Positions 11,180 through 64,000 of a stretch of DNA of 64,000 nucleotides are shown here, piece after piece. Source of the stretch: Octopus vulgaris (taxonomy: Eukaryota); the NCBI GenBank assembly GCA_951406725.2, contig OX597839.1, positions 14,880,001-14,944,000 on the forward strand. Direction: 5' to 3'. Numbering within the stretch: the stretch's first letter is position 1; every line of letters starts with the position of its first letter. Below the pieces are notes generated by a model that was not told the origin of the DNA, did no database searches, and saw nothing but the letters and a program-made list of their open reading frames with translations. The position numbers and the translations under genes were made by a program.

Positions 11180-11779
11180 TGTAACGAACTTAGTGAGTGT
11201 GAATATATCTTCTCTTGTACTTTCGGGGTACAAGAAAGCAAATCACTAGCCGTTGCTTTAATAATCCAGAATTCTACTAGTCAGAAACAACAAGACGCAG
11301 ACGTAAATAATATATATACTACTTTATTCTCTTTCTTGGTAACAGTAACAATAAGTGGCTATCTGATGTCCTTGGTTCTGGGCGCGCAAGGCTGAAAGTT
11401 AATGGATTGTAATATTTACAATGTTCAGCCGCTAAAAACAGACGGGTTAAATATGGCGTCCGGAACAGGGAAGATGAATGTGGTCGGCAACAATTTGGTT
11501 AAAAGCTTTCGGCCGACTGCTATCAAAGCTGGACAGCGAGAATACACGTCTGTCTCCTTCGTCGCTGCCGTCCCAAGTCCCCGCTGCTGCTGCTAGCGGT
11601 CAAACGTTCTACGACCCCCTTGCCTTGGCTAACTACCACGTAGGCAAAAGGGTCGTGCTTCCGGTGGTTCGCGCATGCGCGAGAGGGCCCTTCCTCTCTC
11701 TTGGTGAAGGCACCAACACCACACGCGCGAAATACAAAATGGACGGTGCGCGCGCGCGCACCGTTATAGGATCACTACA
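11180..11779 (-). repeat. 3' LTR
   Basis: tgtaacg...ataggatcactaca; preceded on minus strand by purine tract GGAGGGGAG (+ strand ctcccctcc, ~11783-11792). Confidence 0.93.
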
Positions 11780-13323: not shown

Positions 13324-13923
13324 TGTAACGTATATGTGTGAGTGTGAATATCTTCTCTTGTACTTTCGGGGTACAAGAAAGCAAATCACTAGCCGTTGCT
13401 TTAATAATCCAGAATTCTACTAGTCAGAAACAACAAGACGCAGACGTAAATAATATATATACTACTTTATTCTCTTTCTTGGTAACAGTAACAATAAGTG
13501 GCTATCTGATGTCCTTGGTTCTGGGCGCGCAAGGCTGAAAGTTAATGGATTGTAATATTTACAATGTTCAGCCGCTAAAAACAGAACGGGTTAAATATGG
13601 CGTCCGGAACAGGGAAGATGAATGTGGTCGGCAACAATTTGGTTAAAAGCTTTCGGCCGACTGCTATCAAAGCTGGACAGCGAGAATACACGTCCGTCTC
13701 CTTCGTCGCTGCCGTCCCAAGTCCCCGCTGCTGCTGCTAGCGGTCAAACGTTCTACCACCCCCTTGCCTTGGCTAACTACCACGTAGGCAAAAGGGTCGT
13801 GCTTCCGGTGGTTCGCGCATGCGCGAGAGGGCCCTTCCTCTCTCTTGGTGAAGGCACCAACACCACACGCGCGAAATACAAAATGGACGGTGCGCGCGCG
13901 CGCACCGTTATAGGATCACTACA
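13324..13923 (-). repeat. 5' LTR
   Basis: tgtaacg...ataggatcactaca; near-identical to 11180-11779 and adjacent to the PBS. Confidence 0.93.
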
Positions 13924-17919: not shown

Positions 17920-18833
17920 ATGATGCGATTTTTTATACTTCTTTTATTTTTCAAAATTAAGATAAAGTTCTTGTTTCATCTAAAATATTTTCTCCCTTTT
18001 CTTCAATGCTTTTTCATCTATACAGTAGATTTGCAAGGCCCTTCTTCCTAAATTCACTTGTCCGTGACGGAAGATACTCCTCCATTACTATTCTGACCTC
18101 ATCTACAGAATTCATATTTTTTCCGTTCAAATGATTTTGAAGACTGTGAAATAAATGATAATCAGATGAGGCAATGTCTGGCGAATATGGTGGGTGGGAT
18201 ATCATTTCTCATTCAAACTGCTCCAGCCTTTGGAAAGTCATCCTCGCTGTGTGCGACCGAGCATTATCCTGCAGGAAGAACAACTTTCGTCTTGAAATCG
18301 AAGATGGACATTTTCCGATGGTACACAGATGTCGATGAATAATTGAATGACCAAATCAAAGCTTCTTTGCTAGTTTCTCAACAGTTACGATGGGATTTTG
18401 TTCCACCGGGATTTGGAGAACGTCCACTTCGAGATTTTCAAGAATGACGCTTGTCTTCTAGGCTGTAGTTTCCGACTCGGAATTTCTGGAACCACCGTTG
18501 ACATTAGCTTACGCTTATTTCTGACACCCATACACTGCATCAATATTTCTCGCACTTTCCGTTGCGTTGTTGCCTTTATTGAACTCATAAAGCAATATAT
18601 GCTGAATATGCTCCTTTGTCACTTCCATTCTAAATTTGGAAAAATAACTGAAAATCGAACTGCACTCTTCGAAACTTGCGCTAAGAATAAGGTGATGTTT
18701 TTATTTCCCACAAGGAGACAACATAGAAAGAGACAACACAATCTGATTTGGGGTCAGATGAACGAATGGTTAATACATAAATATGAAGTTAAAAATTCAC
18801 AAAATAAGAAAAGAATATAAAGAAATCGAATGA
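17920..18833 (-). mobile_element. Mariner element, internally deleted and degenerate
   Basis: HPPYSPDIASSDYHLFHSLQNHL, QDNARSH upstream and N-terminal HTH fragments. Degenerate TIR remnants (gatgcgattttttata / tataaagaaatcgaatga). Confidence 0.88.
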
Positions 18834-18834
18834 T

Positions 18835-20112
18835 AGGACAGACCGGATGACATTACGGATGGAGTGGAGAGGCAGGTTTCATTCGGACCCCACGAGCCCC
18901 GCCTCGCCACTTATACCTGAGATACGGCCTGCGTTGCATTCATGAGGTTACATTGACACGCAAAATCCATGCTACATTCTTCCATCGATTTTCAAACATT
19001 TTCACAGCTAGGCATTTTCTCTCTAGCCCTCATTTCCTTTAAGGTGAAAGGTGAAGTAATTCACCTATTCAGGGCCAGAGATGAAGGTGCCAGACTTTAA
19101 CTCTTTCAGCATTGTCTTCCAAATCACCTCTCTCGCAATTGCTACTACAATGAGAAAACAATTCTTACCTTCTTTCGAAAGGAAATCAGGCGGGTCAATT
19201 TTTAGTATAGACTCAGTCGAGAGCTGTACTCTTCCTGCACTTGACAACAGTTGTTCAGCATAAACCCACAAGTCCGACACTTCTGAACAATAGCGTGCGG
19301 GACGGTTTCCCTATCCCGCTCACATCTTGGAGAAGTCTAAGGGCCGCGGCCAGCATGCCTTGTGAGCTTGCCCCGAACAGGTAAGGCTCCTCGGTAACAC
19401 TGTCATGCCAGAGACTTCTGAAAGTTGTCCAAGGTCTTTGGCCCGAATGTATATCGGAACAGACTAGCTAGTTGATTATCGTCGAGACCTAGGGCTTCCC
19501 CTAAGGTATCGTCACATTCCGCTTCTACAAGCCCTCTATAAAAGAATGCGGTGGAACCTCCACCGCAGGGATTGCCCGAGCGACGGAATAGCAGGAGAGC
19601 CTTGCGACACTCCGTAAATCATGTATCCAACTTCGATCTTCGATAGAACCAGGTTTCTCGTCCACCGAAACTAGTGAACTTGGGAAACATCCGTTTCGCC
19701 AGCAGAGACCACACCCGTTCACCATCCAGGTAGAGCCACAGTTACCTCAATCTCAGCGCATGTCTACGTATCAATAACCAAGGCATCCCTAGCCCACCCT
19801 TTAACGGTTGTTGGCAGCAAGTAGAGCGTCTCAAAAGCGGTTTCTAGCCTTTCCACAAAAAGTGGAAGAACTGGTTTTCTAGCTTGATCAACCACGAATC
19901 AGGGTAAGGAACGACGGTTAGGCGGTAGGTAATGACCGATGCCATGGACACATTGGCTACCTCCGCCCTCATTTTCAGGGATAGCCACCGCCAAGACTAG
20001 GTCTTAGCTATGTGGGTCACCCTGATCGATACCTCGTCCCAGTTCTTCTCTATTTGGAGGTCCGGTCCGAACCAAACTCCTAGCAACTTAATCGGACCCT
20101 CCGTCCAACATC
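18835..20112 (-). mobile_element. Tx1-clade LINE, 3' portion of ORF2 plus 3' UTR
   Basis: GPIKLLGVWFG, WDEV, GGLGMP..IRRH, ALPVR..L..H, and LWVYAEQLL...FLIVVAIAREVIWK (L1/Tx1 C-terminal region). Confidence 0.8.
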
Positions 20113-21916
20113 CTTTTACGAATCCATTAGACACTGTTGTTTTTATTTCAGTGTAATAATGGCTCATATCCTGTCATATTGGATGAGAGTAATGCTCCAA
20201 TTTAGATTTGTAGCAACGGAGATACACAAGAAACCTCGCATCAAATATAGCAAAACAGTAGAATCAGAGGACTGTAGTAATGTTCTGGATCTGCAAAAAG
20301 TAGTGGGCTTATGACAACGGATGGAAGAATGGAAATGTAACATTGAAGACAGAATGGTTGTAGAAGGATGGAAGCTGTACGATATGGAAATATTGTGAGA
20401 TTAAAGTTAGTAACAAGACCCAAGGCAATATCTATGAAAAACGAAGTCATGTGAATAACCCTAACAAGATAGAGATGGAGGAGAAAGTGAATAATTGAGT
20501 GTGCGAAAAAATGTGCAGAGCAGGGGCTCGTGGATAGGTATTGAAAAGGTTGAGAGTAATGAAAACATTAAAATACAAATTTAAAGAATATATGTTGAAA
20601 AATTACAAGCTGTCGGATCTATATTAAAGTGTTACATTAAATTTAATCTCTAAAAAATTATATACGTATCATGATTTTAATTTTCAGAATTGCTAAAATT
20701 TATCCGAATTTCCGTAAGAATTCAATTAGTTTATATTCCGGAAATAATAGCCGTACTTTAAAAGTTATATCAGTGCGGAATTTTGTAACGAGTTATCGTG
20801 ACGCAGGGTATACCTGTATGATTTGTCGTTTTCCTTTGGAATATTGTCAACGGAATTGACATCTTCGTTTCGCGTTGTCCCTTAACTTGTTCGTTAAAAA
20901 ATGCGCCCTATTTTAAAAGTCTGCCTTTGGTAGTACTTCTCGTAATTAACTGCTTACACTACTGTACAAATTAGTTCTTTGAGGACTTTTATGTGGCGAA
21001 GAAAATCAGCTGAAGTGGTGAGAAATTGAAAGTGCCTGTGATGAAGTCTTTGAAATGAACTTTCAAGAGGGTGTCAGTAAATTATGTATGTCCGGCAAAC
21101 ATTTCATTAACAAGCAAGCGTTCCAACCTGAAATCATGATGCTGAGCTGATACTTTTGACGTCAGTAATAATCGTATCTAACGTGACCTTCTGGACTTTC
21201 TCTTTTGTTTATTGTTACAGTGCCTTATACTGTCGAGTGGTAGAGATAAAAGAAAACTGGAAGTATCATATTTTCCAATTAAATTGGTTTGCCTCCCACT
21301 GTTTTCCCTTTTTGAAATGCAATTTTGCTTTTTCTTTCTCCGCCCCTCTCGCTTTAAACTTTTTTTCTTCTTTCTCTCTCTTGCTCGCTCGTGCGCGCTC
21401 TTAGCTTCATTGAATCCTATTGATGATGAATAATAAAATTAAGGTGGTAATATGGAAAAAAATCTTGGTGCTTTCTACACAAAGAACATACACGTCCGGT
21501 GTAGTGCATTTAAAGTAACGAAACTCCTCTTAAAATTAACAAAATGACATCTATAATGGAAAGAAAGTTATTAATGTTAATGATATATTCTTTATCAAGA
21601 AAGGTAAGGAAAACAATTCAGAAATTAAAATTGATTGGAGGCATAAACTGAGGAGTCTGTTTTGGAGATGAAATTTCAAATTTAAATGGAATTGTTTTGA
21701 CAAACCAAAATTGGAAGTGGGTTAGACTAAACGAAGTGGAAGACGCACTAAAACTGGAGATAAGTCAGAGGAAGGATCTAAGAAAGAGTTGAACGGTTCC
21801 TTCACGTAAAAGCTTGTAAACTCGGCACAAGTTGGAACGATACTTCGCCGATTTAATTTTTAAGCAAGTTTTAAGACCTGAATATTGTAGATTCTTCTCT
21901 CTTATGTACTATAATA

Positions 21917-22429: not shown

Positions 22430-24126
22430 CTATCTTGTTTTTCAAGTAACAGAGTCTGAAGATGGAGTATATCAATAAATTGACTGAGACAACAATTAAA
22501 AGCTCACTGCTTGTAACTTCATTTCTAAGACAATCAGCAGATGATGGAGTAGTGTCCAGGTCTGTAATCCAAATCACAACCGAAACAAAATATAGCCACA
22601 ACTACAAATAAAACTGATTCCTGGTAAAAATATCACGCGAACAAGAAGAACAATACTTGAATGCTTCTGTTTTGGCACCACTTGACACTGGAATTATTGA
22701 TAAAACCAATTCTGACACAATGCAATATTTCCTTCAAATTGTTTTTGACATCTCAAATAATATTCTTAAATTGCTGACAATCGTTGACAAATGTTTCCAA
22801 TGGTGAAATTTGTTCAAGAGAGTGGATATATTGGTGTGTTCAAAAGCAGTCTTTGTATTATTCACTTTGCGTCGTTTTCAATGTAACTAGTACATCAATA
22901 ATCCTTGATCGTTTCGGATGGCCCATTAGTTGATAAAATTTTTATTATAGGCACGAAGGCCCGAATTGAGAGGGGACATTACAACAGACATGGGGTACAT
23001 ATAACAACAAAAAATCGAAAAATATGAAATGAAAATGAATTATTTATAATGAATTAAATGGAATGGCTTACGAGCCCCCCAAAACTCGCAGTTTCATTTA
23101 AAATACAGTTCTGCTATACTGGTTGTTCATCTGTCATATATTCTAGTAACCTCTCCTGATCCACAATAGCTGATAAAGTGTCATAACGTACATATAACCA
23201 TTCACATATACTATAATCATATCTCAATTTCTCCACTGTCTCTTTCTCCACGATTACCGCCTTCCACTGGTCATCATATATTTCTGGGTTCAACTTTACT
23301 CTAATTAAACCTTTCCTACCTGCCAACATCTTTTCCGTATTTTTGTCCTTGAAGTATAACATTACCACTTTGTGTTTCTTTCCCTTGGGTCTTCCTCCTC
23401 TCTTACAAACTTTCAACCGCTCTTCCACTCTTCTTTCCCATTCTTCTTCTGCTGTTAATTTTGCCGGTTCACTTGCTTTCGCTTCTGCATCATTCTCTTC
23501 GCACGTTCTATCTTCCATTTCGTCTGTTGTCTTCCTTTTGTTTTGTTTTTTTAACTTTAGGTGGTGATTCCACCCTCGTTCTCTTTCTAAAACTGAAAGA
23601 TCGAATACCGTCACATGAAAATTCATTACTGCACAAAGGAAAATGGAAATTAGTCGCTAAGGTAGATCGTTGGAAGATCAAATGATAATTTTATATTAAC
23701 TGAGCTAAATACAGAAGCGAGTAACCGGAGACATGATTATTGAATATTACCTTACTTCTTAGTGCAGATAAATCTTTTTTTTTTTTTCAGCCAATGTTCG
23801 GTGACGTTGAGTGGAATTTTTTTTTTTTTTTTTTTTTTTTTTGCAACATTTACCTTCTCGACAAATATGACGCACTTTGAGATGCAAAACATCTCAAACA
23901 TGCGAGAATGACAAGAGAGTCTCTAAACGTTCGGTGAAGTACTTGCTGAAGAGAAAGCCATTGATGAGATTTTAAATGCCAAATATTCAACCGTTGTGAT
24001 GCCACACAAGTAGCAAACTACTTAAATTATTCAGCATATAAAATTTGTAAATAATTCAAGATATTCATGTGAGGAAGATTCAGCTTGATAGTTTGATTTT
24101 AAAAAGTAGTGGGGAAGAATTCCACC

Positions 24127-30340: not shown

Positions 30341-30654
30341 GGCGAAAGAATGTGTATGGTGAACGCGTCTGAAAGGTCTAGAAACACACTTTCCTCTCTG
30401 GTCAATTTCTCGAAGAGGAAGATGAGAGTAGAGAGGGAAGTTTTGTCTAGTGAATGTTTCAAAAAAGATGGGTGAATGTAGCAAGGAGGGCACGTGTGAA
30501 TAACGGAGCCAGCTTGAGCATAATCCTATGAATCAAAAACAGAAAGGAAAAAAGAGAGTCACTTACTGTAATGTGATTTTTTTGCATGACATTATTGCCC
30601 AAGGTTACCATGGTCTTTTCCGTAGGCTTTTCTGCCTTACAAAAATAGAAGTTC

Positions 30655-31965
30655 TAGTCACATTAGAACAACATATAAGTGTACTTCTTATGGGAGACTT
30701 CAATCTTCCCAGTGTCAGATGGCCCGAGGGCCTTTCTCTCCCAGGAATGACACAATGCGAACAAGGACAAGTGAAGTCCCCCTGAACCTCATCAACACTT
30801 TGTACATTGAACAACCAACCAGGGCAGATAGCATACTGGATCTCTGCTTCACAAAGAATATAGATCTCATCCATAATGTGAAAGTGACACCGACGCTGCT
30901 CTCGGATCACAACATGGTAGAGCTGACCATGTGCGGACCAAAGGAAAGCATGAACATGCAGCCTACAAGAAACGCTCAGAATCTTTCCAGCTTGAACTTC
31001 CAGAAGACAAACTGGAAACAAATTGAGAAAAAGATCCTCAAACAAAACTGGCCTAAATGTCTCTCCTCATCGGACATCGACATGAAACTTCAACAATTCA
31101 TGTCTGTAATGCAAGCCATATGCTACAAATGTGTCCCGGAGGGAAAGGCCACTATACACAAGAACAAAATCCCCAAGGAGAGGAAAATTCTTATGAGACG
31201 GCGTACAAAAGTTTTAAATCGCCTAAACAAAGACATTGAAAGCAGTGAAAAGTCCCACCTGAAAATACCACTGCTGGGAATTGAAAAAATCTGCAACTCT
31301 CCCATGAAAAAGAAAGAGCAGACAAAGAAGCCTAAGCTATAGACAATATAAAATCTAACTCCAGAGCTTTCTTCAAGTTTGCCAAAGACACAGCTTCGGT
31401 GCACTGCAGGATAGGGCCACTCCTTGAAAAAGATGGTACACTCACAGGAAATCCAATGAGGATAAGTGAAATCTTAAATGTGCAATACAAAAGTACTTTC
31501 ACGCCAATCCTTGGGCACTTTCAAGTCAGCAATCCAACTGACTTCTTTACCACTGCAGATATAAAAACAGAGGCAATGATGATCGATTACATCAATATAA
31601 AGGAAGACGATGTAATAAGGGCTATAGATGAAATGAACCCAAACTCAGCTATTGGCCCTGATGGATTCCCAGCAATCCTTCTAAAAGTATGTAAGCGAGT
31701 CCTAGGAAGACCACCGCAGTCCCTCTTTCAGAGCTTCCTTGCAACTAGCAAACTTCCAAGAAAACTGAAGGAGGGTAAAATGTGCCCTATTCATAAAGGA
31801 GGTAGCAGAGCAGAGGCCAAGAACTACAGACCTATCTCTCTGACCTCAAACATCAGCAAGGTCATGGAACGAATAGTCAGAAGAAAACTAATCACTTTCC
31901 TTGAAGAAAATGACTTGCTGCCTGACACTCAGCATGGTTTCCGACCAGGATGAAGCTGCTTGACT
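30655..31965 (+). mobile_element. CR1-group LINE ORF2 fragment (endonuclease end to RT start)
   Basis: LLMGDFNLPSVRW, PTR..SILDLCFT, LSDHNMV, SAIGPDGFP, PIHKGG...NYRPISLTSNISKVMERIV, QHGFRPG*SC. Frameshifted; truncated at both ends. Confidence 0.9.
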
Positions 31966-42899: not shown

Positions 42900-43300
42900 T
42901 TTTGTACCCTCTTATAGAATATTGTGGCCATTGTTCTGAGAAAGTACACCTAAATCACATTGTAATTGCCGACAAGTCGACAGGCTACCAGCTGAACACA
43001 TGGAAAAGCAGGTTCATGCCGTCGGACGCTGCTCTGACGGGCCAGTTAAACTTCTCGGTGACGAGGCGATGGCAATTCTTACTCAGAAATGGATAGAGAG
43101 GAAGCTGTCGTTGAAGGTCGGGCAAAGGTGGTGAATGCCTACATCGCCTCCATTATTATTTATCGCCTGACTGTCGTGCCTTGCCCTGGCTACCGCTTGA
43201 TCAGGTAGGGGCATCAGTTATTTATTTTCTTGTGGAAAGGATATGTTTCGATGATCAAGCAGTCAGTCTCTCTGCAGTTCGTCTCCATGACGAAGCTGCC
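42900..43300 (+). mobile_element. Tx1-clade LINE fragment (post-RT region)
   Basis: LNTWKS, GPVKLLG, RKLSLK-RAKVVNAYIASIIIYRLTVVPCP and FLWKG-like fragments, colinear with 19850-20110. Matching 3' tail at ~43990-44050 beyond the inserted SINE. Confidence 0.65.
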
Positions 43301-43540
43301 GTTCTGAGCGAAGGAAAGACCGAGGCTAGGCGACTGGCACCTGGTGTTATCAAGCGCTCACAACCTTCTATAAGTTGGGGGAGACTCTGTTTTAAGCATA
43401 CACTTGTGGGTTGGAGAACAAGAATTAGAAAGGGTACTTTCCTTTGGTATTCATATAGATCTTGGATAACGGGTTTCCTCGATTGGCCCTAGAGGTTCTC
43501 CTGTATCAGGATGATCACATCGCTATCACATTTTACTGAT

Positions 43541-43930
43541 TCTTTTACTCTTTTATTTGTTTCAGTTTGACTGTGGCCCTGCTGAAGCGCAGCCTCTAGT
43601 CAAAGAAATTGACTCCAGGACTTATTCTCTGTAAGCCTAGTACTTATTATATCGGTATCTTTTGCCGAAACGTTAAGTTACGGGGACGGAAATACACCAA
43701 CATCAGTTGTCAAGCGATAGTGGGGGGTAAACACACACACACACAAATACATACATACATACACATATACGACAGACTTCTTTCAGTTTCCGTCTACCAG
43801 ATCCACTCAATGCTTTGGTCGCCCCGAAGCTATAGTAGAAGACACTTGCCCAAGGTGCCACGCAGAGGGACTGAACCTGGAACCATATGATTGGGAAGAA
43901 AGCTTCTTACCACTCAGCCACTTCTGCGTC
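43541..43930 (-). mobile_element. SINE family A, full length
   Basis: Reverse complement of 34665-35040 along its length. Confidence 0.9.
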
Positions 43931-46726
43931 TTCACACAGCCACACCTTTTACACATTCTTATATCATTCCATTCTATATAAATCCCCACACCTTATGTCT
44001 GTCTTTGTATTGTCACCCTCATCCATCGCCCTGGTGGCAAGTAAAAGAAACCATATAAAATCTTAAGTCTCAGGGTGTGTATTTATATTCTTTATTGCAA
44101 GTGTACTTTATAATCGTACATTGAAATATGTAAAATACGAATCTATAAATAGCTTAGTTCTAATACATGATAATTTTGGTATAAGGTGCATTGATAGTTC
44201 GACGTTTATTGTCTAAAGAAATTTTCACAGACAAAATTTGTGTGACATTTATAAGAAAACCTTTCGTGACATTTTATCTCTAAATATCTGTTGACATTTA
44301 TTTGCAAGTTTGATTTGGTTTTTAGTCGCTTTGGACTGGAACCCTTATATATCTTATTCCTTCTCCCAACTCTGTTAGGTTTTGGGATTACCACTGAATT
44401 TTTTGTTTACACGTACATGTGAGATACATGACACTGGTAACCCCCATCTCTTTTCAAACTATTATACCCATGTGAGATTTCGAACTCAACACTGTAAGAT
44501 AGTGGTCTCCTCAATTGCCTACTCTTTCAGTTTGCAAACTTATAACTTCAACATTTGAAGGTTAAGTGTCTAAGTTCAGTAAATCCATACATTGCCGTTG
44601 GTGTGAGACGAAGCCTGTACTCTTCATTGAGCATTCCAAATATTTTATTTATCCAGCATACTTCAACGCTCTTGCCTTGTTCAGCTGTTAAGTTATGGGA
44701 CATAATCTATAGAGGCTCACAAGCATTGTAGATGCACCCATAACAATCACACACAAAAGGCATAGCTCGACTCGAGGTGTTACGTAATGGGACAGGAACC
44801 GATGCCTCGTTGTTTCGAAGCGAAATTCGTAACTATACACGCCTGCACTTTTATGCATTAAAACATCTTTAGAATTTATCCGTTTTTTCGATAGTTTCAC
44901 CTTTAGATTTCTTGCTGGAATTGTATAGCATAGCACTATTATTAGCTATATTTGCGATATGTAAACATGCAGTTACTTGAGAATATATTTGCCAACATTT
45001 ATTTTCGTAGATATATCCCAGATTTTGGTTGCATTATACATCCATTGTTCTATATGACTTGCGCCATAAATGTATATTGATTTTCCTTTCTCTTCAGAAT
45101 GTCACCTCTATGAAATATCAGACTCGCAATTAATTGGTTTCGGATTCACTGCCTCTGCACTCTCTTGAGAAAGCTTTTCTCATTGTCACAGGTGAACTAA
45201 AACTTTTTGAGTGAAATTTAACTGTTATGTAGAACTGCGTCGAATTTACTTTAATCTATTGATAACTGGGGATCAGAATTCATATTTTCTACTTTCCTAG
45301 CCGTAACTCTTCGTTAACTTGCATTTTCTTTTTAACTATACAGACTTCTCGGGACGAATATATTATAAGAAAGAAGAATGGAGTTGTGAGTCAAATTCAC
45401 CTAGTGTAATATCTAAATTACTGGAAATAGAGATGTGAATTATTGTGAGATATTTTTTCCTCGAAATCACTTTCACCGATGCTATCTTCCGAGATTTCGT
45501 TCTCTGTTCCATTCATAGAAGAATACGTCTCCATAACATACTACTTCGTTTATCCCATATGTATTTAACGATATAATACTATAAATATAGTAAGGTATAA
45601 CAATTTCACTGGTATTTCAAGGAAATACACGTCTTTGCGGAAGAGATTTCTCTTGCATTATATTTTGAAACGGTTGTTTGTTCTTTTCTTGGCTATTTTG
45701 CAGTTTGCCTCTGGTGTTCCCCGCCTCTGGCGTTGAAGTTCCGTCGTTGTTTTATACTACTACTAGTATTACTGGTAGCCCATAATAAAGTGGTTAACGT
45801 GATGCAACCAGTTTACTGTAGCTAAGTAATGCAAGAACTGCTCAAAGGCCCATTTGTTGTATCTTCTTACGTTTTTGCCTTATGTTGTTGTTTTTTTGCA
45901 TGAAAGATATGTAAATCTCTCTCGAATAAATTCCTTTTGCTTTCAATGCAGCACTTTGTTGTTGTTGTTGTTGTTGAGCGTTATCTTGACGCTAAGCTTA
46001 TCGAAGTTTGATTCTAATGTGCCAGTGAATATAGCTCTATTTTGCGATAAGCTAAATGAAAATAAACGAAATATAGTTGGAGAAATGTTTCTGTTTGAAC
46101 TAAAGAGATGGAGGACAGATTTCCTTCATTGGAAAGGAAAAAATATTTACAAAAATAACTTTTTTCACGTAGACGAAAAGTTCACTGAAATTTTTATTCA
46201 AGTTTTCGTCTAACAGATTTATCTGCAAAACGAGATTGCTAGTCGAACCAGTTCTTTTGCATACTGAGGTTATTCTTATTTCAACCCTCGACCATTTTAC
46301 CGAATTATATACTTTTCAAGTGGCACGTTCCCAGACAAAAATGTGTGTATATATTGTATGTGTGCATATGTGTGCGTATATATATGTGTGTGTATATTTG
46401 TATGTATGTGTGTATATTTGTATGAATATAAGTTTATATATTTGTATGTGTATATGTGTGTATATATTTGTAAGTATGTATATATGTGAATGTATGTATA
46501 TGTGTATTTCAAAAATGAAATAAGTGAAATCCAGTTTCAAGGCGTAGCATATTGATAAATGTCTCCAAATAAATATTAAGGCTCTCTGCAACTTAAAACT
46601 TGACGCTATCAACCTTGTTGATAATGTTTCAGGCATATAAAAATTTGTATTATTTTCTGAAATGGAACTTTACTTTAATCTTCAAAAGAACTGATCAAAT
46701 GTAAATTTTGTTTTCCTGTAGAAAAA

Positions 46727-58499: not shown

Positions 58500-59145
58500 T
58501 AAATTGAAAGGGGCAAATATGTGACGAGGTTGAAAAAAAATACCCCAGGAAAAAAAATGTACTGCTGGTATTTATATAATTCACTACTATTTTGCTACAA
58601 TGTCATGAAAAAGAAAAAAATTAGGTATGTAAATCGAATTCGCCACCCCCTTTTCCCCGTTCGCGTTTGTGTAAAAAAATTATTATTTAAGTTTTAAAAA
58701 TTATTTACTTTGTTCAAAAAATATTAATATTAATTAATTTTCAAGAATTATTTAATTTTATTCTGTAAAATAGTAATTAATTCATTTATCTGTAAATCCG
58801 CGAGGTTGTTACTCAGGCACCTAGAATGGTAACCTTCAACTAACACTATCTCCTCCGAGACCCTGCGGCGCAAGTTGACCAAAATTGAGAGTATGGTAGA
58901 AGAAGGGTTGCTCTTCCTTCCGTAGAACATAAAATTCAAATCGGACCATGTTAACACCAAAAATTATTTACATCAAAAAGATGCTTTTTTCTATGAAAAT
59001 CCCTATTTTTTACGATTTTTTCACTGCTGTGTCGCCACTTTTCGGTGTATTTCGACCAGAAAAATGTTCACAAAATTTTTACTTTTCAAAATTACAATTC
59101 CAGCGGGCCGAAACAAACCCGAACAACGCCGGGCGATACTGCTAG
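58500..59145 (+). mobile_element. Non-autonomous Helitron, 3' end
   Basis: Terminal cccgaacaacgccggg hairpin followed by ...ctgCTAG|T. 5' boundary uncertain. Confidence 0.7.
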
Positions 59146-59394
59146 TGTAGTATAAAACATTTTTTCACCTCTTGAGTGGTAATCAAGTCAAACCGAAAAT
59201 GGATCTGAAGATATCCCTTTCTTTCCAAACGAAGCAAAAACTAGATAAATAAAATAAACTTTTCGTCCTGTTCCCGAAGTCAGTATCATGCTGTGTGCCG
59301 CCGAAAGGCACATTTAATTTTTGAAGAAAATCAACAAAATGCAAATCAAACACAAGTACCATAAATACAGATAACAGCAACAATAACACCGTTT

Positions 59395-59590
59395 AAAGTT
59401 TGGCACAAAGCCAGCAATTTTAGAGGAAAGATTGTATTAGTGGATAAATCGACTCCAGTATTTGACTACTTTATTTCATCTACCCCGAAAGGGTGAAAGG
59501 AAATTTTGATCTTGGCGAGATTTGAACGCCGAACGTAAAATACCGGAAGAAATGCCACTGACGCGCAGACGTTTCTGTCAGCTCACCGTT
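59395..59590 (-). mobile_element. SINE family B, diverged
   Basis: Colinear with 21917-22132 (tttggcacaaagccagcaatttt...tttgaacgccgaacgtaaa...ctgtcagctcaccg). Confidence 0.8.
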
Positions 59591-59631
59591 GTAACAAATA
59601 TTAATGGTAGTCGTGGTGGTAATGATAATAA

Positions 59632-60168
59632 TCTTTATATATATAAAACTGAGAATGTGTGTGTGTGTGTCTGTCTGTCTGTGTGTTTCCCTAAAACTTG
59701 AGAACTACACAACCAATTCCATTCAAATTTTACACATGCCTTACTTAGGGTCCATGTAGTTTCATGGGCAAAAGAAAATGTTCAACTTCTTGCCTAGAGC
59801 GAGCCCATAGCAATATCATATCTTCTCCACTATTTCAGTATTACGTGTTAAAAGTGAAACAAAAACGTTTCTCTATTCTATGTCAGATACTTTCACTTTA
59901 ACAATAAAAATAATAATAACAATTGAATTATATGTAGTAAGTAATAATTAAAATCAAACTAAAGTATAATATAATCGTAACATAACAAAATTAAAAATAG
60001 CAATTGGTATAAAATTGCATCAATGATTTGAACTTGAATAAGTGGTTTCACATGAATGGGAATAAATTAAAAAATAAAATTAGCGTGCAGAAATGGAATA
60101 GTCCAGATGGATAATAAAAAATTAAATTAAAGAAAAGTATACAATGTAGAAAAAAAAGAAGATTTGAG
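59632..60168 (+). mobile_element. Non-autonomous Helitron, 5' part
   Basis: A|TCtttatatatataaaactgagaatgtgtg(tctg)n...aactacacaaccaattccattcaaattttacac: typical 5'-TC, TA-rich, microsatellite and ccaat..aaatt start. 3' CTRR end not seen in the window; extent to 60168 is inferred. Confidence 0.7.
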
Positions 60169-60183
60169 CACATGTCTGAAATC

Positions 60184-61938
60184 TATGTGTGTTGTTATCT
60201 GTGACTAGACGGTGAAATTTTTTCTGTGTAAATTGATTTGATATCGCGCGAGGCGTTTGCCTCCACGTGTGGAAACCTTCCGAAGAAGGTGAATTGACCC
60301 TCTAGTCATGGCGACTTACGCGGGGGGTCACCGGGAAAAATAACGATTCGTCGATAATCATAAAGGAGGTTTTCTTTGAGAAGGAGAAACTCAAAGAATA
60401 TGAAAAGCTCTTCAAAAGGGAGGGTGATAGCGTGAAGCTAATCCCTCCCGCGAAAGCAAAAGAGGATAAAGAAAGCAAGACGGTGACATACAGAACCCAA
60501 GACAAGAATACGAAGAAACTGGCAAGAGTGGAGATAGACAAAATTGAAAAATGTCTGGGAGACATAATGGGGAAAATAACCTACGTGAGTAGAGGCAAGA
60601 AATTTGGTACGGTGGAGGTGAGATGTGCAACGGAGGAAATTGCAGCCTCACTGGCTACCACCGTACTAAGAGCCGAAAAATTCACGATGTGGCCCTCATA
60701 CAAGGGAAGAAGAGGGGTCCGGGTTAAAATCCCGAATATTCCCCCAGAAGTGAAAACAGAATGGCTGGCAACAGCTATTCTAGGAGCAGCAGAAGAGGAA
60801 GTGGAGGTGGAATCAATTAAGGAGTCCAACGCGGTAAACTGGAGAGGATATGGGGTAGAATTGTGGTTGATGGCCACAAAAGAGGATATTGAAAGGTTTC
60901 CCTACAGAATTGAAATTGAAGAGGAAAAAACCCTCAGCTTAATTGTAGAGGGGAGAAAACCAAACTGTTACTTGTGTGGGACAAGGGGGCACATTAAAAA
61001 AGAGTGCCCGTTATATGAATTCGTAGCGGAGTGCGAGCAGGAACTTGAAGAAAAGAAGAATACTGTAAATGAGAAAGAAAACATAGAAAAGGAAACAAAA
61101 CAACAAGAGAAAGGAAATAATAAGTCAATGAAGGAAAAAGAAATAAAAGAAAAGAAAGAAATAGAACCAAAACAGAGTCAGGAAAAAAAAAGGAAAAAGA
61201 AACAATAGGAAAAAACAAGAGAGGGATCAGAATCAAACGAAAAGAAAAGACGGCACACAAAAGGAAAACGAAAAGGAACATAAAACACGAGAGAAAGAGA
61301 GAACAGACAAAGAACCAAAAAGACAAGAGAAGGAAGGAGAAAGAAAAGAAGGCAGAAAGAGAGAAACAAAGAGAGGAGAACAAGGAAGAAATAAGCCCGA
61401 AAAGGAAAATGAAGGAAAACGTAGGACGGAAACAAGATTACTATTACTACAAGTTAGTAACCTTCCATTTCTGCCCTGTAATGAAAGACTTGACAAGCGA
61501 AACGGAGGGACATATATGGGTCAACAGGATGACCGACCGGTGGCAGGAGACTGTTCTAATCCCCGAAGAAAGAGCCGCTGAGTTCCTCAGAGCTGCCGGA
61601 GAGAGTGTAATATTTTACACGAAGGTTCGAGTGAGAGAGCGGCTGCCTGAGGGCTCAGTGATAGACTTCAGAGAAGTGGAAACAATTATAGAATATGTAT
61701 AGAATTGAGAGAGGAAAAAAAAAAAAAGAGAAAAAAGAAAATTTTGTGAAATATATGTGACGAAAATGTAACCTCTTGATTCCGGGGATCGAGTGGACAT
61801 TTACATCTCATTGTAAATATTCTTTCATATGTCATTTTTACTTTTATTTTTTCCTTTTCTTGTCATTCGCTTTCTTATTTTAAGTTCCCCGATTGTATTG
61901 TCCCATCTATGTTCGCCCCTTGTGGGTAGTAATAAAAT
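60184..61938 (+). mobile_element. Full-length ORF1-only Tx1-related retroelement (1.75 kb) flanked by 15-bp direct repeat
   Basis: cacatgtctgaaatc at 60169-60183 and 61939-61953. 5' UTR, one gag-like ORF, 3' UTR ending ttcgccccttgtgggtagtaataaaat. No EN/RT sequence. Confidence 0.85.
60308..61702 (+). CDS. Gag-like ORF1 protein (~464 aa if two homopolymer frameshifts are corrected): RRM-like region, CCHC zinc knuckle, K/E-rich linker, C-terminal ~90-aa domain
   Basis: MATYAG/VTGKNN... joins ORF 60432-61208 via a G-run at 60322-60327. CYLCGTRGHIKKEC knuckle. A shift in the A-run near 61183-61191 gives an open frame through ORF 61409-61702. Confidence 0.75.
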
Positions 61939-62163
61939 CACATGTCTGAAATCAATTTTTGCGTCTGTTAGTAAGTTATATATTTTGCTCTCATAGTATT
62001 ATCTCTGTTTTTCTATATTGTCTGTATACCTGTTTGTTTACTGTTGTTTAACTGAAGAAGTCAGCCTTCACGCGAGGACTTCGCGTTGGTGTTCCCCCCT
62101 CCGTGGGGGAAAACTACAATTATTTTGGAATCTACAAAGGTTTGTTAAAGCCATTTGTTTAAG

Positions 62164-63534
62164 ATGGAGTCCCCCATCTCCTATTCGCCCGTGACGAGCG
62201 AGGACGAATACCCGGCGTTGACATCAGGAAAAAAAGAGGCGTTGTCGCCAAGAAAAAAAGAGGCGTTATCGCCGAAGAAAAAGGAGGCGGCGTCGCCCCA
62301 AAAAATAGAAAAATCAATACCAGCATCAACTCCAGCGAAAAAATTCGCTGAAGTAGCTGGGAAAAAAATTAAAACAATAAACGTTGAAAATCTAGAAAAA
62401 TTCGCAGACAGTGTAAAGAAAGAGGGCACAGAAGTGACTGTGGTCGCAGACGTACAGAAACATGAAGATATAGAGAGGAAAAGAATTATTTACAAAACGT
62501 ACAACACAGCTACAAGAATGATTCAGAAAATCGAGGAGAAAAAAATAGAGTTATGTTTGAAACCAATAATGGACAAAATAACATATATAAACAGAGGTAA
62601 AAGATATGGCACAGTGGAGGTGCGTTTTACCTCTGAAGAGATAGCGAAAAAACTATCAATGGAGACTTTCAAAGCAGAAAACATCGTTCTATTACCATTA
62701 TATAGAGGAAAGCGGACATCAAAAATCACAATGAACAACATTCCCCCAGAGGCAGATGCAGAATGTCTGGTGGCAGCAGTGATGGTAGGCCTGGAGGAAA
62801 AATAAACATCCTCCAGGCCACAGTGGAGAAGAGGAGTTCTGGAAAGGACAAAAGATAGTGATAGCCATACAGGCGGAGACACAAACACTGGAAGAAATTC
62901 CAGAAACAGTAAAAATTAGCGAAGAGGAAAAAATAACTGTTTTCGTGGAGGGCAGGAGGCCGAGGTGCTTCGGCTGCGGCAAGAAGGGTCATGTAAGGGC
63001 GGAATGCCAACCCAAACCCAAACCGCAGGAAACACCGAAGCCAAGAGAAAAAGAAGTGTCACCAGAAGCAACGTCGGACGGCCCAGAAGGGAAGACCGAA
63101 GGTGTGGAGGTGACGGTGACAGCAGAACCAGCGGCGGAGGAGAACAAGAGCGAGGAAAAGATAAATGAGGAGGGGTGGAAAAAAATTACCGAAAAAAAAA
63201 AAGAAAAACGGATACCACCCCTCCCAGAATAATTTTAAAAAAGAAGAGAGAGACAATGGACTCATATATGGCCGTCAAGGCAGCGAATAGCAGACTAGGA
63301 AACGTGTTGGCTGCTATGGCCAAGGTGGAGAAAGTGGAAAAGAAAAATGACTTTGTGATCTACAGAATAGGCCGGAAGGATTACGGGCGGATAAAATCCG
63401 AATTCTTCCACGACGTAGGCCCACTTAGATTGGAGGTGACATCTCCACATATATTCGAGGGCCTACGTCAGACTCCCTCACGAGGCCCAGAAAAAGAGTT
63501 GGAAGAACGAGAGAAAACCGAACCACTGATATAA
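62164..63534 (+). pseudogene. Tx1 ORF1 (gag-like, CCHC), frameshifted near 62800-62840 and 63195
   Basis: DKITYINRGKRYGTVEVRFTSEEIA and VEGRRPRCFGCGKKGHVRAEC align with GKITYVSRGKKFGTVEVRCATEEIA and VEGRKPNCYLCGTRGHIKKEC. Confidence 0.85.
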
Positions 63535-63543
63535 AGGTAAGTA

Positions 63544-63981
63544 ATGGATTGCATTTATGTTGGTTGTTTGAATGTGCGCGGCCTGGGAACAGGCTGGAAG
63601 CAAGGTTGCTTCCTGCATGATATCAGGTCGCGTAATTTAGATGTTATTGTTGCTACAGAAACCCGGTTAGAGGGGCCAAGAGGTCTGCTCCCGCTGTTTG
63701 ACGGCTACGAGAGATTTTTCTCTTCTGGCAGTCCTACTGGCGGAAGTGGGGTGTTGGTCCTAATAAAAAGAAACCGTGTTTCTGAGAAAAAGTTAATTTT
63801 TGCAGATCCAGAAGGTAGGCTGGTCGTCATGGATTTGACGTTCAGTAATGGTAAAGTTATCAGACTGGTTGCAATTTACGCACCCAACCATACAGGGCAA
63901 AGTGATTATTTTCGTGAACTAGAAAACTTTCTTGGTACTTCGCATTCATTAGTTGTGCTAGGAGGCTTTAACACAATTTGA
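63544..63981 (+). pseudogene. Tx1 ORF2 N-terminal APE endonuclease, truncated by a stop
   Basis: GCLNVRGL, DVIVATET, GSGVLVL, DPEGRLV, RLVAIYAPN, LGGFN (GDFN altered), then TGA. Confidence 0.9.
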
Positions 63982-64000
63982 TCTTCCAGGTCATATTTAG

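Follow-up and report, generated by a model that had tools for sequence, protein, structure and literature searches.

A 1.75-kb unit of Octopus vulgaris DNA, at 60184-61938 (+) of the 64,000-nucleotide stretch analyzed here (the window), is in our judgement, with a probability of roughly 0.8, a full-length copy of a multi-copy ORF1-only family that likely lends its tail to the ORF2 enzyme of an autonomous L1/Tx1-group element. The evidence comprises the anatomy of the unit, its lack of an ORF2, the presence of its ORF1 in many copies, an ORF1-to-tail junction found in another copy, and the homology of its tail to the tails of ORF2-bearing copies.

Anatomy of the Unit

The unit, its surroundings and two further copies in the window that bear on it are as follows:

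59631-60168 (+): very high-copy host repeat, insertion site of the array (contig depth)
60169-60183 (+): 15-bp duplication, 5' copy; exact repeat CACATGTCTGAAATC, two copies in the window
60184-60307 (+): 5' UTR, strongly folding (fold z -3.8; contigs of all four runs)
60308-61022 (+): N-terminal part of ORF1, with a CCHC knuckle behind two domains predicted to be RRM-like (AF2, Foldseek, PF00098)
61023-61414 (+): linker of ORF1, charged and rich in K/E, in which the frame slips three times (mapped on P0005 and P0014)
61415-61702 (+): ORF1 C-terminal domain, about 95 aa, ending in TAG (end residue shared by gene models)
61703-61890 (+): 3' UTR, an A run and then U-rich, immediately 3' of the ORF1 stop (tblastn blank)
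61891-61938 (+): 3' tail, common to ORF2-bearing L1/Tx1-group copies and a SINE-like repeat
61939-61953 (+): 15-bp duplication, 3' copy (exact repeat CACATGTCTGAAATC), doubling as spacer to the neighboring element
61954-64000 (+): neighboring autonomous-type L1/Tx1-group element with 5' UTR, ORF1 and the start of ORF2 with APE (PF03372)
18696-20149 (-): 5'-truncated ORF2-bearing L1/Tx1-group copy, candidate helper type (translation; homologous tail)
22940-23590 (-): highly diverged ORF1-only-type copy, 5'-truncated, with charged linker, ORF1 C-terminal domain and stop at 23114

The first-pass annotation had described a 1.75-kb unit set in a 15-bp duplication, and the exact repeat CACATGTCTGAAATC is indeed present at both ends and nowhere else in the 64-kb window. 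Among order-2 Markov resamples of the A-rich 59.5-62.6 kb interval, 48 of 1000 produced some exact 15-mer pair more than 500 nt apart, and taken alone the repeat is modest evidence; it carries weight mainly because it follows directly after the tail and coincides with steps in contig depth.

The layout is likewise as first described: a 5' UTR of 124 nt, a single ORF1 running from the ATG at 60308 to the TAG at 61702 (1395 nt), and 236 nt from the stop to the end of the unit. The opening few bases of the 5' UTR differ between copies; contigs from all four runs cover it, one joint entering at 60187, and the fold of 60184-60320 has a score that 0 of 200 shuffles reach. We found no credible Rfam match to the 5' UTR, which shares short motifs with the 5' UTR of the neighbor. 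The 3' stem-loop that had been counted as a feature of the unit has to be dropped as evidence, given that it folds no better than shuffled sequence (z -1.2, reached by 26/200). Rfam gave zero matches at gathering score in the 64 kb and four weak ones (E 0.2-4) in 59.6-62.3 kb, and no tRNA was found in the window; a snRNA or tRNA target and a 5' ribozyme were rejected on these grounds.

The ORF1 Protein and its Reading Frame

Bridging a +1 slip in a G run of the N-terminal part (60322-60327) and a -1 slip in an A run (61183-61191) yields a 464-aa reading. This span, as first proposed, stands; the count of two slips does not. The frame map against the intact family model P0005 places frame shifts at ~61190, ~61205-10 and ~61353, and because there are thus four slips, the G run included, two of them cancelling, about 50 linker residues of the 464-aa reading are off-frame. 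One G is missing at 60327 in 3424 of 4496 depth in run X2 and 74 of 103 in X16, whereas at the listed position the gap accounts for just 7 of 2712 in X1 and none of 25 in X3, figures which describe contigs of other copies and not the 60184-61938 copy itself; both listed X3 contigs across 60304-60440 carry one gap somewhere. Slips are also present in the models P0002, P0006, P0014 and P0018. The unit copy, with its four slips, is either dead or mis-assembled. Frame slips at A runs occur in the ORF1 of the neighbor as well (62790-63240), a sign that the assembly may contain homopolymer errors.

The N-terminal part of ORF1 is predicted to consist of two RRMs followed by a CCHC knuckle (PF00098, E 6e-5). 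The AlphaFold (AF2) model of 60330-61022, from an alignment of 94 sequences, has a pLDDT of 94; Foldseek returned tandem-RRM matches (E 3e-5), and the structural match to the La RRM has Z 9.1 and rmsd 2.6 over 82 aligned residues. A PDB sequence search gave zinc-knuckle matches only, and the Pfam matches included no L1 ORF1p family. The C-terminal domain was modeled at low confidence (pLDDT 59, best Z 3.7), with no Foldseek match at E<=0.001.

Codon changes were counted among the 40 of 219 variant rows listed. The RRM-CCHC part has 8 of 11 changed codons synonymous against an expected fraction of 0.33 (p 0.009), synonymous changes are not in excess in the C-terminal domain (3/12, p 0.79), and all 23 changed codons together give p 0.10; the excess in the RRM-CCHC part is a hint of selection.

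A Multi-Copy Family in Octopus

A protein search with ORF1 returned 14 matches, all from Octopus, seven of them at 93-98% identity, and listings of protein clusters contain many others; the word search reached relatives up to 511 aa, and the profile search had no length limit. The C-terminal motif of the family is found in 20 of 235 stored proteins, all of them O. vulgaris gene models, located on seven chromosome-size sequences and one 1.3-Mb scaffold, and 14 of these models when compared gave 13 distinct sequences at 91-100% identity. An open frame to one common end residue is kept in 19 of the 20; the first ~85 ORF1 residues are missing from all 20. To judge from these models the unit belongs to a multi-copy family of octopus elements. 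With the profile of the RRM-CCHC part 1142 proteins were retrieved at E<=0.001; ten of these matches were looked up, and the six with a species come from Octopus and Argonauta. A Pfam scan of 30 proteins found APE or RT in none.

The neighboring element starts at the base after the second 15-bp repeat, on the same strand as the unit, and extends past the end of the window; its APE matches PF03372 (E 6e-8), it is multi-copy by contigs, and its ORF1 is 47% identical to P0009. The ORF1 of the unit had been called homologous to that of the neighbor yet far diverged from it, and the comparison agrees: the N-terminal halves are 40% identical over 138 aa (E 6e-34) and the CCHC parts 36% over 56 aa. 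A tree of 40 rows places the unit with P0003 of O. bimaculoides and two further proteins (support 100/98) and the ORF1 of the neighbor in a separate clade; in a second tree, of short rows, the clade of the unit also takes in P0008, P0011 and P0013, sister families from O. vulgaris. The possibility that the unit is a deletion derivative of its neighbor was rejected because ORF1 identity is just 40%, the unit groups with P0003 and away from the clade of the neighbor, and similarity at the DNA level extends over just 57 nt. As far as the alignments and trees can tell, the family has existed long enough to split into subfamilies and sister families.

Some family members have consecutive accession numbers. 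CAI9715245-249 are all family ORF1 models, which represent at least four different sequences and whose numbering is not interrupted by any other model, and further consecutive family ORF1 models are CAI9739099-101, CAI9729052-053 and CAI9719596-597. If numbering reflects position and ORF2s were unmasked, we infer that the five would fit an ORF1-only array; isoforms, or the omission of repeat-masked ORF2s, could equally give consecutive accessions.

An abundant O. vulgaris repeat ORF of 89 aa, beginning “MTEQ” (proteins P0020-P0030, P0037-P0054 and P0204-P0235), occurs in tandem, with two to four copies per gene model in many models, and is spliced to the ORF1 of three families (that of the unit and sister families, in adjacent accessions) and to host genes. 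It may be the C-terminal domain of a further family with ORF1 alone, at a homology that is not significant: alignments of the C-terminal domain of the unit with MTEQ, with the domain of the neighbor or with that of the copy at 23 kb were made by eye and are not significant, and in the C-terminal domain comparisons the hhalign probability was <2% and the score was reached by 27 of 300 and 8 of 200 shuffles.

The Missing ORF2 and the Stop-to-Tail Junction

The unit was said to encode neither endonuclease nor RT, and we concur: a tblastn of the APE, RT and ORF2 pieces of the window itself against the unit gave nothing at E<1, and only 236 nt lie between stop and end. For the family at large, contigs of four runs (X1, X2, X3 and X16) from two organisms were aligned to 59560-62400, with 9379 contigs in X1 and 6319 in X2. 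The 3' UTR bin (61745-61839) has a depth of 34k/32k against ORF1 medians of 26k/29k, contig depth being not a copy number, and the bin with the ORF1 stop (61650-61744, A run) dips to 9k/7k. There are no loose ends at the ORF1 stop among the 24 of 571 listed. A 384-nt X16 contig with 10 other letters bridges 61559-61942 (the sole bridge among the 32 of 15957 pieces listed), and because it spans this interval the junction of stop, UTR and tail recurs in a diverged copy in another organism, and is consequently not unique to the locus. A search for full ORF2 homologs with the APE of the neighbor found none in 538 candidates. The multi-copy ORF1, the bridged junction and the shared tail support the view that the missing ORF2 is no one-off deletion; a minority of close relatives with ORF2 may still be compatible with the contig evidence.

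A Shared 3' Tail and Candidate Helpers

The tail bin is three to four times as deep as the 3' UTR bin. Other elements are joined to the tail in contigs at 61895-61898, and the listed loose ends include some before 61895 and some before 61898. One listed loose end resembles the 3' UTR of the ORF2-bearing copy at 18696-20149, and another (23 contigs in X1) opens with the letters of repeats in the window that we take to be SINE-like. Among 3086 tiles compared with the tail of the unit, that of the 18.7-kb ORF2 copy is the best (79% over 52 nt, E 4e-5), and a four-tail alignment together with the tile search shows homology of the tail to two ORF2-bearing copies in the window. Since the tails match and the loose ends join there, LINE, half-LINE and SINE-like repeat would have one common 3' signal; the shared tail is likely to be the ORF2 recognition signal, a handle for borrowing ORF2p.

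A 12-bp repeat flanks the 18696-20149 copy (at 20149 and 18707); AATAAA lies within this repeat, and the “polyA signal” of this copy may have been supplied by the target. An ORF2 remnant at 43119-44055 (+), interrupted by a SINE-like repeat at 43541-43929, has a related tail near 44005-44050, and the fragmented APE and RT of another LINE lie at 30626-31953 (+), their matches to PF14529 and PF00078 both below cut-off.

The ORF2 C-terminal motifs in the window are, we presume, L1/Tx1-like. An ORF1 of RRM/CCHC type fits Tx1 (PMC5203782, in its accessible part). The partner of the unit is apparently an octopus L1/Tx1-group element, Tx1 being a candidate clade; the window holds no intact RT.

A Second ORF1-Only-Type Copy

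In the 5'-truncated copy at 22940-23590 the distance from the stop to the end of a related tail is 174 nt, and its tail tile (~22940-22984, -) is the second best of the 3086. Its domain is 39% identical over 57 aa to the ORF1 homolog P0092 (pairwise E 5e-12) and matches P0094 at E 9e-4, both proteins being among those retrieved by the ORF1 N-terminal profile; no TSD longer than 7 nt was found around it. From the lack of significant similarity between its C-terminal domain and that of the unit, it follows that at least two very different ORF1-only types are present. Monophyly of the unit with P0092 and P0094 is unsupported, the latter two falling outside the clade of the unit in a tree that is itself poorly resolved.

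Host Repeat and Probable Mixed Arrays

Contig depth in the host repeat is 0.3-1.3 million, compared with ~0.03 million in the unit, and by median is ~28x that of ORF1. We take 59631-60168 to be the 5' part of a Helitron-like element and 59100-59150 to be a Helitron-like 3' end. A TSD can be read in the unit copy at 60169/61939, and other junction contigs differ in sequence. An X1 joint leads from the tail of the unit through 18 other letters to its head (depth 3.8, weak), an X16 contig joins the tail directly to a neighbor-like head, a diverged copy is represented by an X2 contig over 61924-62203, and an X3 contig joins the same host flank to a variant head; the host contigs in X3 and X16 diverge past 60174. 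The consecutive gene models and the junction contigs together suggest mixed head-to-tail arrays. The motif CACA-N5-GAAA recurs in three junctions (the TSD of the window, the spacer of the X1 joint and the host continuation in X3/X16), and with 10 other occurrences in the window it is too weak for specificity. Elsewhere in the window is a 587-bp direct duplication (11193-11779 and 13338-13923, 99% identity, ~2.1 kb apart).

Alternative Explanations

The unit might be the recent product of an internal deletion in an extant autonomous element with the same ORF1, its spread driven by the tail and its ORF1 a functionless passenger. Frame slips in the unit and in P0002, P0006, P0014 and P0018 would suit this, as would the C-terminal domain without synonymous excess, and the loose ends seen are just 24 of 571 listed. 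We nevertheless consider it unlikely: 3' UTR depth equals ORF1 depth, the ORF1 stop is free of loose ends among those listed, the nearest ORF2-linked ORF1 seen is merely 34-40% identical, and both the synonymous excess in the RRM-CCHC part and the open frame to a common stop in 19 of 20 models speak against a mere passenger.

Passive spread after one or few insertions, either with the host repeat as carrier or through duplication in tandem or of whole segments, strikes us as very improbable. Subfamilies are mixed in one accession run, the relative at 23 kb is 5'-truncated, the X1 joint has other letters between tail and head, the X16 tail runs straight into a neighbor-like head, and the host contigs of X3 and X16 diverge past 60174; these observations weigh more than the location of the unit inside a very high-copy repeat, the X3 contig with the same flank and a variant head, and the runs of near-identical consecutive gene models. 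Hardly credible, and largely refuted, is a one-off deletion or assembly artefact at this place, or a domesticated single-copy host gene, given a family on several chromosomes and a contig of another organism bridging the junction, even if any listed run contains at most 48% of the words of the unit copy and the homopolymer slips of the neighbor hint at an error-prone assembly.

A Proposed Mode of Propagation

For an ORF1-only element using a borrowed ORF2, transcription by Pol II would start from the structured 5' UTR, and ORF1p, a predicted RNA binder, would coat its own RNA in cis. An L1/Tx1-group ORF2p provided in trans would recognize the tail, and target-primed reverse transcription at a nicked target would create the 15-bp duplication. 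Successive insertions at one preferred site could then give the order target-unit-target-neighbor; sequential insertion at one site, as for SINEU-3, is the simplest reading of this arrangement.

A broader reading, which we put forward tentatively and with the odds somewhat against it, is that L1/Tx1-group families with ORF1 alone radiated long ago in octopods and perpetuate themselves there. They would have done without ORF2 from a time preceding the split of vulgaris and bimaculoides, would keep ORF1 under selection, and would stand in mixed head-to-tail arrays together with autonomous elements, all at one target inside a Helitron-like repeat. Members of this radiation would be the unit, P0008/P0011/P0013, P0003 of O. 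bimaculoides, the 23-kb fragment and the “MTEQ” repeat.

Comparison with Known Systems

The comparisons that follow draw on the accessible parts of the papers cited. Non-autonomous LINEs with an ORF1 are a recognized class, represented by HeT-A (Jockey), HAL1 (L1) and Ag-Sponge (CR1), and the accessible account of this class names neither Tx1 nor octopus (PMC5786205). The unit would belong to it by its ORF1-type protein, lack of ORF2, shared junction and partner-like 3' end. It is like the mammalian HAL1 in being an ORF1-only element of the L1 group with both 5' and 3' ends kept, and in HAL1 the long retention of ORF1 was read as a need for it in cis (PMC5753468, PMC3627910). HAL1s, however, derive from mammalian L1, whereas the relatives of the unit with known species are octopod proteins, and the unit differs in its RRM-RRM-CCHC ORF1, its octopus host, a sequence tail shared with ORF2 copies and a SINE-like repeat, and signs of arrays; it is not a HAL1 in the strict sense.

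HeT-A and the other telomeric ORF1-only elements of the Jockey clade in Drosophila form head-to-tail arrays beside ORF2-bearing relatives, as is hinted here (PMC13534243, PMC5786205); among them ORF2 was lost repeatedly, and ORF1-only lineages beget further ORF1-only families (PMC13534243). The unit, in contrast to HeT-A, is interstitial, has a TSD and lies among SINE-like and other dispersed repeats, and is not a HeT-A-type telomeric element. Ag-Sponge of Anopheles is, like the unit, an ORF1-present non-autonomous invertebrate LINE, but of the CR1 clade (PMC5786205).

Tx1 elements with a target preference include Xenopus Tx1, which inserts into Tx1D, and the crocodilian Tx1-Mar and SINEU, which insert into Mariner-N4_AMi; tandem insertions of the Tx1-mobilized SINEU-3 sandwich one TSD (PMC4494074). 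These systems and the unit have in common insertion in another transposon, tandem insertions around one TSD and non-autonomous passengers (PMC4494074). SINEU encodes no protein, whereas the unit does, and the target preference of the unit is merely hinted.

Eighty L1-Tx1 families are reported in O. vulgaris (PMC13282606); ORF1-only elements are not described in the accessible text, and the supplement contains none of the terms HAL1, ORF1 or non-autonomous. Nor is an ORF1-only element of such type found in the accessible parts of PMC9115989, PMC4758252, PMC11203168 and PMC5203782. In the literature searched, an ORF1-only element did not come up for octopus, for molluscs or for Tx1; one may be contained in Repbase, in Dfam or in the Zenodo library of PMC13282606. 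Mammals and insects have elements that live in this ORF1-only manner; for molluscs the type is apparently undescribed.

Implications

Many O. vulgaris gene models labeled “hypothetical”, dozens in all and in several cases chimeric, are fragments of such elements. The repeated loss of ORF2 has been called striking, in that no such loss seems to occur in non-telomeric Jockey elements (PMC13534243, accessible part). Were the octopod radiation real, it would be a non-telomeric parallel to HeT-A/TART, in which LINE, half-LINE and SINE compete for one ORF2 via one tail. A SINE-like repeat that encodes no protein apparently relies on this tail too, and the octopus case, with several diverged families, therefore offers a natural test of why ORF1 is kept in cis when ORF2 can be borrowed.
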